NCBI GenBank assembly: GCA_023957235.1 | Contig: JAMLHI010000003.1 | Location: forward strand, 279,371 to 343,370 | Reading direction: 5' to 3' | Length of the DNA stretch: 64,000 nt | Source of the DNA: Chitinophagales bacterium | GTDB taxonomy: Bacteria > Bacteroidota > Bacteroidia > Chitinophagales > JADIYW01 | Shown: positions 4,080-63,813 of the stretch, piece after piece | How positions within the stretch are numbered: the first letter of the stretch is position 1 | How the letters are laid out: each line of letters starts with the position of its first letter | Translations under genes and position numbers: made by a program | Notes under the pieces: model-generated | Seen by the model: the letters and a program-made list of their open reading frames with translations, nothing else | Told to the model about the DNA's origin: nothing | Databases searched by the model: none

Positions 4080-5499
4080 TTTCTTTTTTATGAAAATCAT
4101 CATAAACAGATATCACATACGGTATATCTTGAACAGCTATTTTTTTTGCAAAAATTCTCCTCTCTTTATCCAAGATAATGATTACTGGTGTAGAATTAAT
4201 ATCATATAGTTTTCTGAAATTTGATTCGCCAGTGGGGTCATAGACATTGGTCCAGACATCGTTTAGATGATTATTGTCAACAAATTGCTGTGCATGTTCT
4301 CTTTCAATTTCTGTGGAAACACTGAAAACTCCTACATTATATTGCTTTTGTAGGCTGTCTTTCCATATCTCCATGATTTCAGGTATTTCTTTTTTACAAT
4401 GACTACATTCTGAGTTCCAAAATACCAAAATGGTATAATCATTATTTTGGATGGATTGAGAAAAATGAACAGGTCGGTTGTTGAGGTCATAAACGCTGAT
4501 ATCAGGAGCAATTTTGCCTATCAATGTAGGTCTAAGTGCTTCGGCTCTTTCTTTCATTTTGTCGATAGTTGACTGGTCAACCCATGGGGTTTTGCCTGCG
4601 AGATAATATTTATCCAAAAGGTGGACATATATAGATTCCTGACCCATGATATTGCTTTTTGCGTATTTGTTGACAATCTCTGATGACAGAATTTTAAAGG
4701 TCTCTTGATTGACTTCTGATTTTTCAAGAATGATATCTATGGCATGCGAAATTGAATCTGGATGTTGGTAAATCTGATCCAAAAATGTCATTATCCTAGG
4801 AATAATGACAGGAGATTTAATGAGTGCTACATCATTGAAATCAATATTGTCCCAATAATGATGAATTAAATAATTGTATCCTGAATTATTTTCTAATTGC
4901 TGATTTTTATTTGATTCTGGAAGGGGAACATCTCTAAGCGCACTCAAGACTTTGTTATATAGAGCTTTAGGGTTTTTGTTGATGGTTTCAATTCTTTTGT
5001 CAGTATATTCTTGATTGGTCTTCTTCTTTTGTTCTTCAGCTTTTTCTCTTATGTCTTTACTAGTATTTGTATCGGAAATAATTGAGTTCAAGCTATCCAT
5101 TACAATGGAAGTTTGTATGGCTTTTTTCAAATCTTCATACATAATCTGATTTTCCAATGAATTTTTGACAACCATATTGATTGCTAAATTATTAGTGTCA
5201 GTTGATAATTGAAATTTTGTTTCTCTAATAATAAATTCAAATGAATTGAGATTTAATGTAGGGAATGCTACCAAATAAATACCATCATTATAATTTTTTT
5301 CACCTTTGATTTCAGTGATACCGTTATTATTAAAGTGTAGTGTGTCAGCAATAAATTTTTGAGCACCGTAATTATAGGCTAGAATACCAATTTGGTTCTC
5401 CATTCCTTTGACTTTAATTTGAATATCAAAAACCCTTCCTTGAGCTGAATTGTATTGCATGGAGGCCGCTGTCAATAGGATAAAAAGTAATCGTTTCAT
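4051..5499 (-). CDS. Secreted TlpA/AhpC-like thioredoxin-fold thiol:disulfide oxidoreductase with long N-terminal domain
   Basis: Signal peptide MKRLLFILLTAASMQYNSAQG. C-terminal thioredoxin fold with a CxxC motif (VFWNSECSHCKKEIPE). The 3' end overlaps the convergent ORF by 29 nt. Confidence 0.75.
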   Translation of the reverse strand: MKRLLFILLTAASMQYNSAQGRVFDIQIKVKGMENQIGILAYNYGAQKFIADTLHFNNNGITEIKGEKNYNDGIYLVAFPTLNLNSFEFIIRETKFQLSTDTNNLAINMVVKNSLENQIMYEDLKKAIQTSIVMDSLNSIISDTNTSKDIREKAEEQKKKTNQEYTDKRIETINKNPKALYNKVLSALRDVPLPESNKNQQLENNSGYNYLIHHYWDNIDFNDVALIKSPVIIPRIMTFLDQIYQHPDSISHAIDIILEKSEVNQETFKILSSEIVNKYAKSNIMGQESIYVHLLDKYYLAGKTPWVDQSTIDKMKERAEALRPTLIGKIAPDISVYDLNNRPVHFSQSIQNNDYTILVFWNSECSHCKKEIPEIMEIWKDSLQKQYNVGVFSVSTEIEREHAQQFVDNNHLNDVWTNVYDPTGESNFRKLYDINSTPVIIILDKERRIFAKKIAVQDIPYVISVYDDFHKKEIKSKNSSSK

Positions 5500-17253: not shown

Positions 17254-18501
17254 ATGCTCATTCGCTTATTTAATAAGATTTATCATTTCGTAATTAACAA
17301 TATCTTTTTGAAGATTATATTTTATTTAGGATTATTCATTTATCCATTTCTATTTTATTTTTTCTTTAAAGAGTATGGACTTTTTACTATTGGAATACAT
17401 ACAAATCTTATCATCCCATTGTACTTCATAGTAATAGTTGATTTTTTGAGCAAAACAACACCATCTTTTTCTCCTCTATTTTTAAAGATTAAATATTTTA
17501 TTACAGTCTATCTTATAATTGAATTTATTTTAATACTTATTAAGCCTGGAAGTATAAATCTTCCTGGGCGCTATGGCCAATATACTAACAATACTAAAGT
17601 CAATATTAATAATTATTATCACATCAACAAACCAGAAGAGTATATTTCAACAAAGGAAAAAGAATTTGTATTTGAAAGAAAACAAAACAGTCTCGGTTTG
17701 TCTGACAAAGAATGGATAAAAGAAAAACCGGAAGGAACATACAGAATTATCTGTTTGGGAGATTCATTTACAGAAGGTGATGGTGTAGATTATGAACACT
17801 CTTATGTGCAAGCTCTTCAAAGAATATTGAGTAAGAAATATAAAAAAATTGAAGTTCTAAATGCTGGGAAAAGAGGCTCAGATCCTTTTTTCAACTTTAA
17901 ATATCTAGAAGACAAACTAGTAGATTATCAACCTGACATGGTGATACAGAGTTTCACTGCAAATGATTATTATTATGATTTTGTTGGAAGAGGTGGCATG
18001 GAACGTTTTGGTGAAAACGGGATTTTAAATACCAGAAAAGATTTTTGGTGGGAGCCGGTTTATGCGGCGAGCTATACAGCCAGAATACTCATACAAACAT
18101 TGGGAGGCTACGATAAATATTTAATCAAAAAAAGTAAATATGAGCAATCTATTGAAGAAATGAAACCCAAAACGATAGTTTTATTTAAGGAATATCAACA
18201 ATTTTCAAAAGAGCATCAATTTGATTTAGTTGTTTTTACACTCCCTTTTAAAAACGATTATCAAGGCAATAAAGAGAATGAAAAGTTTTATCAAGAGGTT
18301 CATCAGGAGTTTTTAAAATTCAATCTTCGCTTTTATAATTTACAGTCTTGTTATGATAGCTATATTGAAAATCATCAAGCGTCTTACAAAGATTATTATT
18401 GGAAGAAAGACGGTCATCACAATGCAAAAGGTTATGAGATGATGGCTGAATGTGTGGAAGATATAATTGAACCTACCTTATCAAAACACTTTCAGCCATA
18501 A
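17254..18501 (+). CDS. Membrane-anchored SGNH/GDSL hydrolase (polysaccharide esterase/acyltransferase-like)
   Basis: N-terminal TM helices. Block I is IICLGDSFTEGDG, followed by NAGKRGS, and block V is DGHHNAKGYEMMA (DxxH). Confidence 0.8.
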   Translation: MLIRLFNKIYHFVINNIFLKIIFYLGLFIYPFLFYFFFKEYGLFTIGIHTNLIIPLYFIVIVDFLSKTTPSFSPLFLKIKYFITVYLIIEFILILIKPGSINLPGRYGQYTNNTKVNINNYYHINKPEEYISTKEKEFVFERKQNSLGLSDKEWIKEKPEGTYRIICLGDSFTEGDGVDYEHSYVQALQRILSKKYKKIEVLNAGKRGSDPFFNFKYLEDKLVDYQPDMVIQSFTANDYYYDFVGRGGMERFGENGILNTRKDFWWEPVYAASYTARILIQTLGGYDKYLIKKSKYEQSIEEMKPKTIVLFKEYQQFSKEHQFDLVVFTLPFKNDYQGNKENEKFYQEVHQEFLKFNLRFYNLQSCYDSYIENHQASYKDYYWKKDGHHNAKGYEMMAECVEDIIEPTLSKHFQP

Positions 18502-20516: not shown

Positions 20517-20861
20517 ATGAAGCCTCAGATAATCACATTATTCAAGGATTATCAAAAACTATCAGAAAAAAATAGTGTCAAGTTGATTGTGTTTACTTTA
20601 CCCTTTGTACCAAACTTTTGAGGGTCTTCTGAAAATTATGAGTTTTATATGGAGTTTAAAAATGAGTTTGGAGGCTTTGGTCTTGATTTTTATAATTTAG
20701 AGCCCTGTTAAGAGAGCTATATGTAAGTTCATCACACTGATTAAAAAGATTATTATTGGAATAAAGATGATCATCAAAACACATATAGTTACGAGTTGAT
20801 TGCCATTTGTATTGAGGATATTATCTCACCATTTATATTACTACAGAAAGAGAAAACATAA
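20517..20861 (+). pseudogene. Decayed 3' fragment of an SGNH hydrolase paralogous to 17254-18501
   Basis: A single frame reads MKPQIITLFKDYQKLSEKNSVKLIVFTLPF...*...FYNLEPC*ESYM*...*KDYYWNKDDHQNTYSYELIAICIEDII. It is collinear with the last ~115 aa of the intact gene. It has 4 in-frame stops, and catalytic DGHH has become DDHQ. Confidence 0.85.
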
Positions 20862-20876
20862 TGGCTAAAATTATTT

Positions 20877-21770
20877 TTAATACTTTAATTTCTCTATTGC
20901 TTTTGTAATATCTGCCAGAGTGGAAGAGGGATCTCCCATTTGTCTATTCACTGTCACTATAGTTGGTCGAATGTTCAGTTCATTTCCAATATTTTCTATC
21001 ATTTCTCTGACTGATACTTTTTCTCCATTACCGAGATTAAAGATTTCAAGATGGTTTCGATAATGGATACCTGCTTTTATTCCTTTGATGATGCGAGAAA
21101 TATGGGTAAAGTCACGACTGATGTTTTCGCCATAAAGCTCTATCATTTTATCTTCTATAAGAAGTCTTTTGAATTTGGCAAATGCCATGTCAGGTCTTTG
21201 CCTAGGACCATATACAGTAAAAAATCGAAAGATATTGACCGTGATATTACTTTCTTTATGGAGTTCTTTAATGGTTTCTTCTGCTTTTAATTTACTTTCA
21301 GCATAAGGTGATATGGGCTTTAGAGGAGTTACATCTTCGATTGCTTTCTGTCCTTCTATTTCACCATAAACAGAGGACGATGAAGCATAGATAAAGTGTT
21401 TGATATTGTGTTGAATTGCATTTTTGAAAATAAGAAAAGTCCCTTCAGTATTGACTCTGAAATATTCCCGTGGTTTGTCAAAAGAGGGTCTGACACCAGC
21501 TAACGCAGCTAGATGGATAATAGTGTCAATTTTACCTTCGTTTTCTTTGAGAATTTGAGAGATACTATTTTCATCAGTAATATCCGCCTTGTATAATTTA
21601 AAGTTGGAGTGATTAAGAGCATTTTTGAGGTTGTTTTCTTTGATGGATGGGCTGTAAAAGTTGTCAAAGTTATCTATCCCTATGATTTTATAGTTAGATT
21701 GCAATAAATCATCTACTAAATTACTACCGATAAATCCTGCACAACCTGTGATTAAAATTTTCTTTGTCAT
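20877..21770 (-). CDS. NAD-dependent sugar epimerase/dehydratase (extended SDR)
   Basis: ILITGCAGFIGSNL Rossmann motif, YAESKLKAE (YxxxK) and ASSSSVYG. Confidence 0.85.
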   Translation of the reverse strand: MTKKILITGCAGFIGSNLVDDLLQSNYKIIGIDNFDNFYSPSIKENNLKNALNHSNFKLYKADITDENSISQILKENEGKIDTIIHLAALAGVRPSFDKPREYFRVNTEGTFLIFKNAIQHNIKHFIYASSSSVYGEIEGQKAIEDVTPLKPISPYAESKLKAEETIKELHKESNITVNIFRFFTVYGPRQRPDMAFAKFKRLLIEDKMIELYGENISRDFTHISRIIKGIKAGIHYRNHLEIFNLGNGEKVSVREMIENIGNELNIRPTIVTVNRQMGDPSSTLADITKAIEKLKY

Positions 21771-21996: not shown

Positions 21997-23247
21997 TTAT
22001 AGAGGTAAACTTGTTTGTAAGGTGGAATTATCTCTGTCGAAAAGTGTTTTTTGGGGAGGTTTTTTAGCTTTTTTTACTACCGGTTTCAGTTTGTTGCAGA
22101 TATAATCCAACGTGAGATAGTGCATCAGGCAGATTCTTACTTTCTCACAAAAATTACTGAAAGTCGTTTTGCTGTCGCAATAAAAGCGTTTGATGAGTTC
22201 AAGTAACAAATAGCTTATCAAAGCCACATAAATCTGCGATTTTACTGCATTTTCACTCGTTCCAAGAAAAGTTTTGATTTGCAGGTTTTGCTTCATCGCC
22301 TTGAAAAAAAGCTCAATATCCCAACGTTTTTTGTATAGGTCAGCTATGGTTCGGGCAGACCAATCGAGGTTGTTGGTAATGATTTCGATTACTTTGTTCT
22401 CATCTTCTTTATAAACGTGTAGAAGCCTTAATTTTTGAGTGTTAATGCCTGTTCCCACCGCTTTTTTAGAAGACAATTCTATGATTTCATCTTTGAGAAT
22501 ATCCTGTTCTTTATCATCGGGAAGTTCTTTTTCTTCGAGACTCGTAAAAACTGTATTTTCTTTGATTCTGGTTACAAAAACATTCTCTGCCTTGATACGT
22601 TTCATCATCAGCGAAAAATCAAAATACCCTCTGTCCTCAACGATTATCGTGCCTTTATCAAATATATTGTTTTCCAATCCGTAGCGGTCGTGGACTTTTG
22701 CTTCCGAGATATTGACCATATCGGGAAGCCCAAGCTGGTCGTCCCAAACCGTGTGGATTTTCAAACCTCCTTTAGCTGTTCGGAACTTTGCCCAATCAAA
22801 TAAACTCAAACACAGACTGATTGTGGTGCTGTCAATGAGTTTGATATTATGGTTTTTGATTTCTTCAATAACGTGGCTTTGGTGATGGGATTTCAAGGTT
22901 TCTTTGTAATAGCTCAACAGTCTGTAATACAGTCCCTCAAAGACTTGATAATTTCGGTTTTTATTGCCATCACTCATCGTAGATTTAGCCGGACTTTGAT
23001 GAAGCTCAATATCAGAAAGAAAGGTGCTACTGATTGATAATCAGCAACTTATGTCCGAAAGGGTGTAACATTTATTCAGCTGTCCGAACAATAAAGCAAC
23101 CAGTTGATCGTAAGTCTTGTATTTATGACAACCTTTGTCGGATTTGTACTTATGGATTTCGGCACGAAGTAAATGAGGAGGAATCAATCTTAAAATTTGA
23201 CCAAGTAACGGTTTATTTGTATTTTTGGAACGCCTGAATAATGCCAT
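21997..23247 (-). mobile_element. IS4-family transposase gene (DUF4372-type N-terminus + DDE domain) inactivated by one in-frame TGA
   Basis: ORFs 23041-23247 and 21997-22977 are in the same frame and are separated only by the TGA at 23041-23043 (..LSDISC*LSISSTFLSDIELHQSPAKSTMSDGNK..). GC content is visibly higher than in the flanks. Confidence 0.85.
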
Positions 23248-23301
23248 ATTTGAAATGAAGTGAGATTTTTTTCAAAATAACGCATTCTCAGGCACTTTTT
23301 T

Positions 23302-24105
23302 TTATTCTAAGTTTCGGATTGTTGTGTTTCTAGGTCTATTGTTCAATTTATTTTGAATTGTTTCAACTTGTTTGTCGGTTATAAGATTTAGGTCAGTGTT
23401 GTTTTTGAAATATTGCCTTAGTAGCCCGTTTTGGTTTTCATTACATCCTCTTTGCTGGGAAGAATAAGGGTCAGCAAAGAACCACTTAATATTAAATGCT
23501 TGTTCTACATTTTTGAATCTTGCGAATTCTGTTCCGTTATCGCTCGTTATGGAATGGATTTTATCTTTGAAGGGCATTAGTGTTTGGATTAAGTTTTGCT
23601 CCACAATTTCTGCGTTTTTTGATGGTATTTTTACTATAAAATTGAATAGTGATTTTCGTTCGGTAATGGTAATAAAGTAGCCGTTCGTGCATTTTACCAG
23701 ATCTGTTTCAAAGTCTCCAATGCGAGCCTGATTATCAATAATTTCATCTCTTAGATGAATGGAAAGCTTGTCTTTTATTATCACTCTAGGCTGTTTGTCC
23801 AATTTTCTTTTACGTCGCTTTCTATGCCCTATTCTGAGGTGCTGAAGGAGATCTTCGCCTTCATACCGCCTGTTAGCATATAACCACTGGTAAATTGCTT
23901 CGATGCTTAACATAGGAATATCTCTATTCTTACAGGTAACGGCTATTTGTTCCGGACTCCAATCCCTCTTAATAAGCCATACAATACGCCTAATAATAGC
24001 CCTATCTTTTGTTTTACGACTCCAGGGTTTATAGGCTCTTTTGCAAGCAAAAACGTGAGCTTGTTTGGCTTTGTACTTGTCAGGTGGTGTACTAATGATA
24101 GATTC
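23302..24105 (-). mobile_element. IS30-family transposase gene, 5'-truncated (HTH region missing)
   Basis: The C-terminus SITSDNGTEFARF...RGCNENQNGLLRQYF...NKLNNRPR is typical of IS30. The frame stays open upstream of the annotated Met (PPDKYKAKQAHVFACKRAYKPWSRK..DWSPEQIA) but ends at TGATGA at about 24106-24111 with no start codon. Confidence 0.8.
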
Positions 24106-26193: not shown

Positions 26194-26605
26194 AGCATTT
26201 AACTTCTATAAAGAAGATTTAACCAATCGTCTCTTATTGCTACAAAAGTGAAAAATGCTAATTGGAAATTTAAGATTGATTTGCTTAGCATTTATATTTT
26301 ATTGCATTTAAGTCAAGTTCATTGATTTCAAAAAACATCATTCATAAAGGAAACCATAAAAAGAATAGAGAGAATCGCTATAGTTATAATCAAAATATTC
26401 ATTATCCAAGTCGGCAAATTGAATTCAGCGAATGAATCTAATACCAAAATATATTGCTTAAAAATTTGACCGCAAAGACGCAAGGAGTTATTCCCCAGCC
26501 ACTGATTCTATTTAACCACAGAGTACACAAAGCTTTTCACAAAGCAAACCAAGAAAATGCACCGGACATTGAGCTTCGGTCATCGAGTGCTTCGATTGAA
26601 CTTAG

Positions 26606-26903
26606 CATCATGCTGTAAGTATCTATAAGCAATACAGTTTAACAATGAGATCCTTACAGGGTGACAGTAGTAGCCATAACTATAGACAGATGTCATGCTG
26701 TAAGCATCTATGTGTAATACAGTTAGGCAATGAGATTCTTACGCTTCAACAGGTGATACATTAGCCTGTCGAAGCGCTCAACGACTGCAGGGTGACAGTA
26801 GTGTACATAACACTACATGAACGGCATGTGTATCCTGCGTATGTCATGCTGTAAGCATCTATATACATTACAGTTGAGGAAGGAGATTCTTTCAGAATGA
26901 CAG
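26606..26903 (+). repeat. Tandem array (3 copies) of an ~62-bp core + ~22-bp linker repeat (ATGTCATGCTGTAAGCATCT..CAATACAGTT..GAGATTCTT..CAGGGTGACAG)
   Basis: Copies lie at 26606-26667, 26690-26798 and 26841-26903. The middle copy carries a ~45-bp hairpin insertion. CGCAAAG/CACAAAAG-type motif blocks flank the array, at about 26470-26560 and 26930-26965. Confidence 0.9.
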
Positions 26904-26973
26904 GGAGGTATCATAATTGCACCCAAATGTCACACTAACAACAAAGAACACAAAAGAAAAATAGTGTTCCTTG

Positions 26974-27029
26974 CGCTCTCCTGTCCCGAGAGCGTGTTCC
27001 GTGAATACAGAAACGGAGTGATTCGGGAC
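26974..27029 (-). other. GC-rich nested stem-loop element directly 3' of wecE-like gene (possible terminator or repeat-associated structure)
   Basis: GTCCCGA (26983-26989) pairs with TCGGGAC (27023-27029) and encloses TCCGT/ACGGA (26998-27002/27013-27017). An alternative stem, CGCTCTC/GAGAGCG, overlaps the outer stem. A T-rich run follows on the minus strand. Confidence 0.4.
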
Positions 27030-28153: not shown

Positions 28154-28498
28154 GATAGCTATAATAGTTTTGTATTGATTTATACATCAAAGATACTATT
28201 TGCTAATGATTTATTTGCTGTGAATAAAACAAGTGAGTAAAAGATAAGTATATTTATAACTAAAGTTAAATAGTTTAACTATCACAGAAAACTTTAAAGA
28301 TTATTATCTACCCAGTCCTAACTTGCAGATAGACTATATGTTTAAAGATGGATATGAAGTATATATCGAGGAATATATAACTGAATACCTCCCTTTTAAT
28401 TTAACTTTGAACACAAATCAGAAGCTCACTATTAAGATGAAGCCAAAAGAATAATAATTGTTTTTACATAAGTCCTATGTTAAAAATAGCATTATTGA

Positions 28499-28506
28499 TA
28501 TATTTG
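28499..28506 (+). promoter_or_regulatory. Bacteroidota -7 box candidate (TAnnTTTG)
   Basis: TATATTTG lies 17 nt upstream of the ATG at 28523. Confidence 0.35.
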
Positions 28507-28522
28507 TATCTATCATTTTTTA

Positions 28523-55160: not shown

Positions 55161-55298
55161 ATGTCATGCGTAAATTGAGCGCAGTCGAAATAAGCATCTA
55201 TATGCAATACAGATTAACAATGAGACCCTTTCAGGGTGACAGAGAGGTAGTCATACGATACACTGATGACATGCTGAAAGCATCTATATGTAATACAA
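55161..55298 (+). repeat. One full (with ~20-bp insertion) plus one partial copy of the ~84-bp repeat family
   Basis: ATGTCATGC[gtaaattgagcgcagtcgaaa]TAAGCATCTATATGCAATACAGATTAACAATGAGACCCTTTCAGGGTGACAG, then linker GAGAGGTAGTCATACGATACACTG, then ATGACATGCTGAAAGCATCTATATGTAATACAA. Confidence 0.85.
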
Positions 55299-55332
55299 TC
55301 AAAAATCACAGCCATATATCCATTAAAATACT

Positions 55333-55340
55333 TAAATTTG
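55333..55340 (+). promoter_or_regulatory. Bacteroidota -7 box candidate (TAnnTTTG)
   Basis: TAAATTTG lies 22 nt upstream of the ATG at 55363. Confidence 0.35.
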
Positions 55341-63281: not shown

Positions 63282-63421
63282 TTTAATCTAGATTTTCTAA
63301 TATCTAAGGCAAATTACAAAAATATATGCTGAAATGAATAGGCTAGAGTGTTTTATGTGATATTTATTACACTTTTGTCTTTTGCGTTCTCTGTTGTTAA
63401 TGAAGTTACACGAGGTTGAAG

Positions 63422-63650
63422 GTCATTATAAAAGAATCTCAATCCTCAACTGTATTGCATAAAGATGCTTACAGCATGACATTTGTGATAGTTATGGTTA
63501 CCACTGTCATTCTAAAAGAATCTCAATCCTTAACTGTATTGCATAAAGATGCTTACAGCATGACATTCGTGTAGTATGGCTGCCTCTCTGTCATTCTGAA
63601 AGAATCTCAATCCTCAACTGTATTGCATAAAGATGCTTACAGCATGACAT
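63422..63650 (-). repeat. Tandem array (3 copies) of the ~84-bp repeat family, inverted relative to the 26.6-kb array
   Basis: Copies lie at 63422-63482, 63505-63566 and 63589-63650 (TGTCATTCTGAAAGAATCTCAATCCTCAACTGTATTGCATAAAGATGCTTACAGCATGACAT). The linkers are 22 nt. TTGTCTTTTGCG motif blocks flank both sides. Confidence 0.9.
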
Positions 63651-63813
63651 TAGCGTAAAATTCTAAATCACTATTTGTCTTTTGCGCCTTTGCGATTATT
63701 AAAAGAACGCAAGATTATTTCACAAAAGCAAGAGAGATGTCAAAATATCTTTAAATGAAAAACCTTTTGATTTTTACTTTTTTGCCTAATTTTATCAACG
63801 AACTTAATTATTG

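Follow-up and report, generated by a model that had tools for sequence, protein, structure and literature searches.

The 84-bp repeats found at three loci in a 64-kb stretch of DNA from a Chitinophagales metagenome-assembled genome (MAG; GC ~31%) are probably tandem arrays of a non-autonomous, palindromic selfish DNA element with a cruciform core. We refer to the whole 64-kb stretch as the window. It contains eight copies of the repeat, seven full and one half, arranged in arrays A, B and C (Table 1). The element is short, non-coding and multi-copy. On sequence comparison, the window repeats belong to a widespread family of palindromic DNA repeats that form a four-way junction, a family that is apparently new to the literature.

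Table 1. Repeat arrays, their units and flanking blocks (window positions), and the four arms of the core
Feature	Position	Strand	Details
Array A, three units	26605–26924	+	sequence reading
Leader of array A	26470..26604	+	CGCAAAGACGCAAGG block, CACAGAGTACACAAAG-type motifs, second small palindrome GTCATCGAGTGCTTCGAT
Unit A1	26605..26688	+	core 26607–26665 and linker; covariance model 28.6 bits; P4 variant ATCCT/AGGGT; one G·T pair within P2
Unit A2	26690..26840	+	core 26692–26796; long linker; ~45-nt hairpin insertion in P4 loop, 26743–26788
Unit A3	26841..26924	+	core 26843–26901 and linker; covariance model 47.2 bits
Tail of array A	26925..26996	+	CTAACAACAAAGAACACAAAAGAAAAATAGTGTTCCTTGCG; overlaps hairpin CGCTCTC-N7-GAGAGCG, which is 3' of DegT on the minus strand
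Array B, one unit with insertion and a truncated 5' half	55161–55300	+	sequence reading
Unit B1	55161..55264	+	core 55163–55240; covariance model 24.9 bits; 21-nt insertion in P2 loop, 55170–55190; P4 variant ACCCT/AGGGT
Unit B2, truncated, 5' half only	55266..55300	+	covariance model 11 bits
Array C, three units	63410–63650	−	sequence reading, TRF, repeat grouping, covariance model
Leader of array C	63651..63700	−	CGCAAAGGCGCAAAAGACAAATAGTG; near-direct repeat of the tail motif
Array C cores	63590–63648, 63506–63564, 63422–63480	−	units 94–97% alike
Tail of array C	63340..63421	−	TTAACAACAGAGAACGCAAAAGACAAAAGTG; sequence reading
Core arm P1			GTC/GAC
Core arm P2			ATGCY-NNN-RGCAT
Core arm P3			long, variable; opens C-T6...A6-G (metagenome alignment)
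Core arm P4			ATTCY-NNN-RGAAT

TRF reported a tandem repeat at 63422–63651 with a period of 84, 2.7 copies, 91% matches and a score of 379. Repeat grouping returned seven copies, at 26608, 26693, 26844, 55183, 63423, 63507 and 63591. Together with a covariance model, these calls confirmed the eight copies at three loci given in a first-pass annotation of this DNA, the eighth being the half copy. The core that it described, ~62 bp closed by TGTCAT...ATGACA, was recovered at 59–62 bp; the semi-conserved ~22-nt linker was evident on reading the units, and the extra hairpin placed at ~26742-26786 corresponded to the insertion in A2. One of the two core hairpins proposed, ATTCT-nnn-AGAAT, is arm P4. 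The other, GCAT-AAAG-ATGC, was poorly kept among copies, and the conserved 5' hairpin of the window units is ATGCT-GTA-AGCAT. Arrays A and C did have leader motifs (CGCAAAGRCGCAA) and tail motifs (TAACAACARAGAACRCAAAAGA) in common. The cap motif CGCAAAG/CACAAAG had two matches in the window and was not frequent there. The window units fell into two subtypes, one comprising A1 and B1 and the other A2, A3 and C. An independent Logan assembly was 100% identical over array A. Motif blocks resembling the A leader also accompany a core variant at another locus, L134.

We observed a second small palindromic module (GAGCTTCGGTYATYGAG.., GCCTGTCGAAGCGCTCAA) in the A leader (26570-26600). The same module lies exactly in the P4 loop of A2 (26743-26788) and of its orthologue (L131:11236-11310), and exactly in the P2 loop of B1 (55170-55190). 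These positions suggest nested insertion at hairpin tips. A 194-nt direct repeat with 70% identity (18274-18467 and 20631-20824, spaced 2357 nt) lies elsewhere in the window, in or near the ORFs 17254-18501 and 20877-21770.

The core forms a perfect four-way junction, with zero unpaired nucleotides at the junction in an alignment of 82 metagenome cores. Paired cells made up 89.6% of this alignment, and all shuffles and slid controls were lower. A covariation test had been suggested when the repeats were first described; on the metagenome cores it gave compensatory changes and favoured the four-way junction over a rod. We observed such changes in P3a (UA 60 / GC 15; UA 47 / UG 18 / CG 7) and at the P4 closing pair (CG 36 / UA 23 / AU 3), and in the window P4 covaries from ATTCT-nnn-AGAAT to ATCCT/AGGGT and ACCCT/AGGGT. 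The rod-like single hairpin given by the minimum-free-energy fold was rejected on covariation, because its pair 12–60 was unpaired in 51 of the 82 sequences. The P2 and P4 triloops were fully complementary in 70 of 124 cores compared to 49.6 in shuffles, a comparison confounded by kinship among copies. This complementarity, along with the cross-phylum recurrence of P1, P2 and P4, hints at constraint beyond simple parasitism. The P3 arm of the window units is short and weak, and single window units folded modestly better than shuffles (z −1.0 to −2.6).

We assessed family membership with a covariance model, R1, built from the 82 metagenome cores and zero window sequences; an nhmmer profile was too insensitive, and R1 was used instead. 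The model scored the three C copies at 49.7, 47.3 and 39.3 bits and the lowest-scoring A copy at 20.4 bits, with the remaining scores as listed in Table 1. The rest of the 64 kb gave nothing better than E = 0.1. The metagenome cores had been collected with a pattern made of the two core ends (GTCATGC-N3-5-GCATC...GATTC-N5-GAATGAC), which A3 and C1 match exactly. This pattern fixed 24 bases, so conservation at those positions is partly built in. It recovered at least 120 stretches from metagenomes, including dozens on separate long contigs of one sample. A strict pattern search of 185,579 species genomes returned nine loci; two Bacteroidota MAGs contributed tandem arrays to these, and a KSB1 MAG one solitary copy. 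Scanning viral contigs for the core pattern yielded 0 matches. P1, P2 and P4 sequences recur across phyla, and the superfamily spans FCB-group bacteria (Bacteroidota, KSB1, CLD3 and others). Tandem arrays of at least three units are frequent in the family (L002, L006, L043, L062, L081, L088, L092 and L102). Literature searches with the core sequence in full text, and with GIY-YIG plus repeats, found no paper, among those listed, describing the element or the nuclease association reported below.

In L001:2564-2664, L007:2537-2627 and L093:2055-2123 the core is part of a longer conserved block, GGACAGCNCCTAATT...ATGCCGGNGAGTGCTGTTCTTCCTGAAAGAA, that has an outer stem of its own and may be a third shell (see below) or a larger element. 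Hairpins of the form GTC-AT..hairpin..AT-C (GTCATTCCCATGAAAATGGGAATC, GTCATCCTGAGCG.., GTCATTGCGA..GCAATC) occur at L134:6276-6348, L140:2459-2475 and L148:1323-1474, in L002 near 4790-4830 and in L007 upstream of 2537. They point to a still wider group of related palindromes.

Homologues of the window repeats carry the marks of transposition. In the metagenome Ga0247727 the core lies in a ~133-bp element, shell-1, with the inverted ends GTAATGCCTCAG...CTGAGGCATTAC. The 8-mers flanking shell-1 elements were identical at 7 or more of 8 positions in 12 of 20 cases, 7 of them perfect. When flanks were paired randomly, none reached 7/8 and the mean was 2.0 matches. The same core was also found in a second shell with different inverted ends (TTATTGAKSTTTGCA), so either the core is carried by at least two vehicles or vehicles arise around it. 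Judged by these target duplications and inverted ends, homologues of the window repeats transpose like miniature transposons. A MITE-like selfish repeat was one of the roles considered in the first-pass annotation, and it is the one that these data favour, along with unbiased orientation and varying unit number. The fetched loci contained no full-length insertion sequence or DDE transposase with shell-1 ends, and the window had none either. IS66 elements make 8-bp duplications; a link to IS66 is a lead and not a result. Shell ends beginning GTAA resemble the ends of the IS66 family (PMC12888890). The window arrays had no clear terminal inverted repeats, the only candidate being an 8-nt CGCAAGGA/TCCTTGCG pair around array A, and target duplications were not seen there.

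A ~97-aa GIY-YIG gene was the only recurrent neighbour among the core-bearing loci, and wherever it was found (L043, L081 and L088) it lay inside an array. On clustering the ORFs near cores, only GIY-YIG recurred; larger clusters were translations of the repeat. We then took seven independent loci, selected on protein homology and nothing else. In 5 of the 7, the gene had cores or half-cores on both sides. At three loci (L138:2456-2850, L141:2467-2850 and L135:2389-2876) a 96-aa ORF is nested between the two halves of one core: the 5' half (e.g. GTCATTCAGGAGGAATC) is followed by the ORF and then by the matching 3' half. Intact ORF-less cores stand in tandem beside these nested ORFs, and in L138 the adjacent intact cores are the precise ORF-less version. 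L140 and L148 were without cores, but the related GTCATCCTGAGCG hairpin was present. Most contigs bearing the GIY-YIG protein were under 3 kb, as expected for repeats.

The solved structures closest to the GIY-YIG protein are UPF0213 proteins, which we take to be the YhbQ/YazA family. To our knowledge, UPF0213/YhbQ is a large family without a known role at present. The YhbQ/YazA family is described as having the junction-cutting nuclease Slx1 as its founding member (PMC7017083). A profile of 119 GIY-YIG homologues found no such gene in the 64-kb window. The 283-aa and 151-aa ORFs beside array A encode a membrane protein and an unknown protein, respectively, and neither is a nuclease. At L147:1-1054, an RVT_1 reverse-transcriptase gene ends at the start of a four-unit core array that lies directly upstream of the GIY-YIG gene. 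This pairing of reverse transcriptase and GIY-YIG recalls Penelope-like elements and was seen at a single locus.

The arrays occupy intergenic spacers around and within a biosynthetic cluster. Array A has a membrane-protein gene on one side and the 3' end of a DegT-type aminotransferase gene on the other; array B lies between two divergent PhyH-family genes inside the cluster, and array C upstream of a B12-binding radical SAM (rSAM) gene. The claim that B occupies the only sizeable divergent spacer did not hold, as the DegT/rSAM spacer at 28154–28522 (369 nt) is also divergent. The bracketed cluster (27035-63281) encodes PhyH dioxygenases, the DegT aminotransferase and two or more B12-binding radical SAM enzymes, and the Logan assembly of this locus shows an Asp/Arg hydroxylase gene in addition. 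The same gene families occur in other orders, with extra genes, in relatives (L131, L134 and L151).

Relatives of the cluster show what changes at these sites. The DegT of L131 is 76% identical to that of the window, and it is followed by the same terminator region and tail. The next unit in L131 is an orthologue of A2 with the same P4-loop insertion; A3 is absent, and the contig ends inside the array (L131:11400). Between L131 and the window, the A2 unit plus tail is 86–92% identical and the tail 87–92%, compared to 70–83% for the DegT coding DNA, so the unit/tail block is either constrained or homogenised. Its conservation could reflect selection for a local function. Two other relatives had no array after DegT, and an 80%-identical rSAM orthologue lies within an operon with no array upstream. 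These comparisons indicate that an array position can persist, and that units and arrays are gained and lost over time.

We weighed three alternatives to a selfish DNA element. One is that the units are structured RNA modules, acting as an sRNA or as a cis-acting leader or trailer. Transcription would proceed from the leader, and the RNA would adopt a tRNA-like four-way-junction fold in which the P2 and P4 loops make contact. We consider this unlikely. It would agree with the covariation in the stems, with loop complementarity above that of shuffles and with conservation of the A2 unit above neighbouring coding DNA. In addition, the wobble pairs of A1 and A2 fit the sense strand only, and a near-match to the Bacteroidota -7 box (consensus TAnnTTTG) was found by eye directly upstream of the A leader. 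A sense-strand RNA, however, tolerates G·U and not A·C pairs, and family-wide the two were similar (G·U 29 vs A·C 24 at the five anchor-adjacent P3 pairs). Both strands are able to form the junction because the element is quasi-symmetric. Orientation relative to flanking ORFs was unbiased (sense 22, antisense 32, divergent spacers 16, convergent 13), with copies frequent in divergent spacers. These data are evidence that the constraint on the core acts on DNA and not on one RNA strand. The weak folding of single units and the target duplications at homologues also count against an RNA. Rfam gave zero families at any threshold (for the window and canonical copies, no match at the gathering score and chance-level ones only at permissive E-values).

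The position of the arrays likewise counts against the RNA element that had been proposed at first pass. A GC-rich hairpin and then a T-rich stretch separate DegT from array A. By eye, the -7 box is matched between array B and the downstream gene (TAAATTTG, 55333–55340) and, on the minus strand, at 63317–63324 between array C and the rSAM gene. If these terminator and -7 box signals are real, all three arrays are outside mRNAs: the likely promoters of the adjacent genes stand downstream of B and C, and A is past the DegT terminator hairpin. We infer that arrays A, B and C are outside predicted transcripts.

The same placement could be read as function at the DNA level. The cores would then be domesticated DNA sites, either binding or architectural, or bidirectional terminator or insulator modules between transcription units. 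All three arrays do lie between transcription units, tail and unit are conserved across species, and in the main family a short hairpin and then a six-T run can be read on either strand. The window type is without T runs, however, presence and unit number vary between relatives, and many copies elsewhere stand in divergent promoter regions. We regard domestication as unlikely.

The remaining alternative is that arrays A and C, as an inverted pair, mark the functional limits of a ~36.5-kb biosynthetic island, serving as recombination or mobilisation ends or as inversion substrates. A (+) and C (−) are indeed oppositely oriented immediately outside the first and last cluster genes, as originally described. 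A second genome retains array A beside DegT at the cluster edge, and its contig breaks there. GC is slightly lower inside the bracketed cluster than outside, and at 21997-23913, ~3 kb upstream of A, there are two ORFs of transposase type (DDE_Tnp_1, and an rve integrase core scoring below cutoff). Against this, array B is inside the cluster and array C is absent upstream of the 80%-identical rSAM orthologue. The A...C segment is without flanking direct repeats, and the inverted arms of A and C are only 60–76 nt long and 82–91% complementary. The same cores occur at ordinary spacers in many genomes, and the chance of an inverted outer pair among three arrays is 0.5. We consider a boundary role unlikely. 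The bracketing of the cluster is probably incidental, given that elsewhere the repeats behave as miniature transposons and are found around a tiny GIY-YIG gene; it may instead reflect some part played by the arrays in rearrangement, for which the retention of array A is the one positive sign.

Several known repeat systems were rejected for the window arrays: a CRISPR array, since linkers are semi-conserved and Pfam found no cas among neighbouring genes; type III toxin–antitoxin repeats, since the neighbours are DegT, B12-rSAM, PhyH and membrane-protein genes with no endoribonuclease toxin; and integron attC sites, since the units show no R''/L''...L'/R' boxes (RYYYAAC...GTTRRRY) and no integron-type integrase was seen.

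Our preferred reading, a selfish DNA element, runs as follows. The core can extrude as a cruciform, a perfect four-way junction. Members of the superfamily are found as single copies inside MITE shells with target-site duplications, and also build up head-to-tail in intergenic spacers. ORF-bearing versions have the 96-aa SLX1/UPF0213-type GIY-YIG gene either at the P3 tip or in between cores. The window arrays would be ORF-less copies parked in three spacers outside predicted transcripts, their unit number changing over time, and their placement at the cluster ends would most likely be a by-product of insertion-tolerant spacers. We further infer that the SLX1-type nuclease made by ORF-bearing copies recognises the extruded junction, and that repair of its breaks from other copies spreads ORF or core and adds tandem units. 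There are two versions of this scheme: the cores may be deletion derivatives of the ORF-bearing element, or they may be homing targets of the nuclease gene. Passive movement of cores inside MITE shells occurs as well. Stated at its most specific, the cores would be the DNA substrates of a new prokaryotic mobile element whose sole gene is a ~96-aa SLX1/UPF0213-type GIY-YIG nuclease with shape-based recognition of the extruded junction in place of a DNA-binding domain. We put this forward as a tentative reading. It would make the element a counterpart of REP–RAYT built on GIY-YIG, with the window arrays as its fossil or active site fields.

Palindromic intergenic repeats and MITEs are well known, and the closest parallel is REP/BIME with RAYT (TnpA-REP). 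In both systems short palindromic repeats occur between genes in many copies, often clustered, and persist over the long term; copies of the repeat stand on either side of a small nuclease gene, whose substrate is probably a folded strand. The enzyme here, however, is a GIY-YIG protein of the UPF0213/SLX1 family, whereas RAYT is an HUH tyrosine transposase. REP repeats are simple hairpins tagged with GTAG or CGTC, whereas the present repeat forms a four-way junction; its arrays run head-to-tail whereas BIME units alternate, and the ORF can sit inside one repeat. We rejected REP/RAYT itself, as no HUH Y1 gene was flanked by the repeats, the sole recurrent neighbour was GIY-YIG, and the cores begin GTCAT and not GTAG or CGTC.

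Bacterial MITEs, among them palindromic ones such as Correia/NEMIS and ERIC, are likewise small, non-coding and multi-copy, with relatives here that have inverted ends and target duplications. Unlike them, one and the same core is found in two or more unrelated shells as well as in shell-free form; the window arrays show no such ends or duplications, and a DDE partner was not found. The BrickBuilt MITE of Porphyromonas gingivalis, which has an internal minisatellite, resembles the arrays in its tandem units with leader and tail, but its unit is reportedly 23 nt and unstructured. Free-standing GIY-YIG homing endonuclease genes (phage Seg, I-TevI type) are also small selfish genes between unrelated host genes, with an ORF that interrupts a sequence found intact elsewhere. 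The protein here, in contrast, is ~96 aa, a catalytic domain with no DNA-binding domain, and the interrupted sequence is a multi-copy palindrome and not a unique gene. Head-to-tail structured units of fixed period are also a feature of tandem RNA arrays (type III ToxI, CRISPR, the STAXI motif). These differ from the present arrays, which have no adjacent toxin or cas gene, conserved linkers, negative Rfam results and evidence of DNA-level behaviour. What is unusual here is the combination of a perfectly paired four-way junction, cross-phylum recurrence in different shells, head-to-tail arrays and a nested minimal GIY-YIG gene.

These results bear on how such loci are annotated and assembled. 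The arrays are best annotated as repeat DNA, and not as regulatory RNA or cluster boundaries. The repeats break metagenome assemblies and account for the contig breaks seen in MAGs of Chitinophagales and KSB1. Junction recognition could also be studied in a compact system consisting of a 96-aa nuclease and a ~70-nt DNA junction. The tight link between junction and nuclease suggests a structure-guided mobile element and a testable role for UPF0213/YhbQ. If the nuclease is the partner enzyme, the element would represent a new class of bacterial mobile element.
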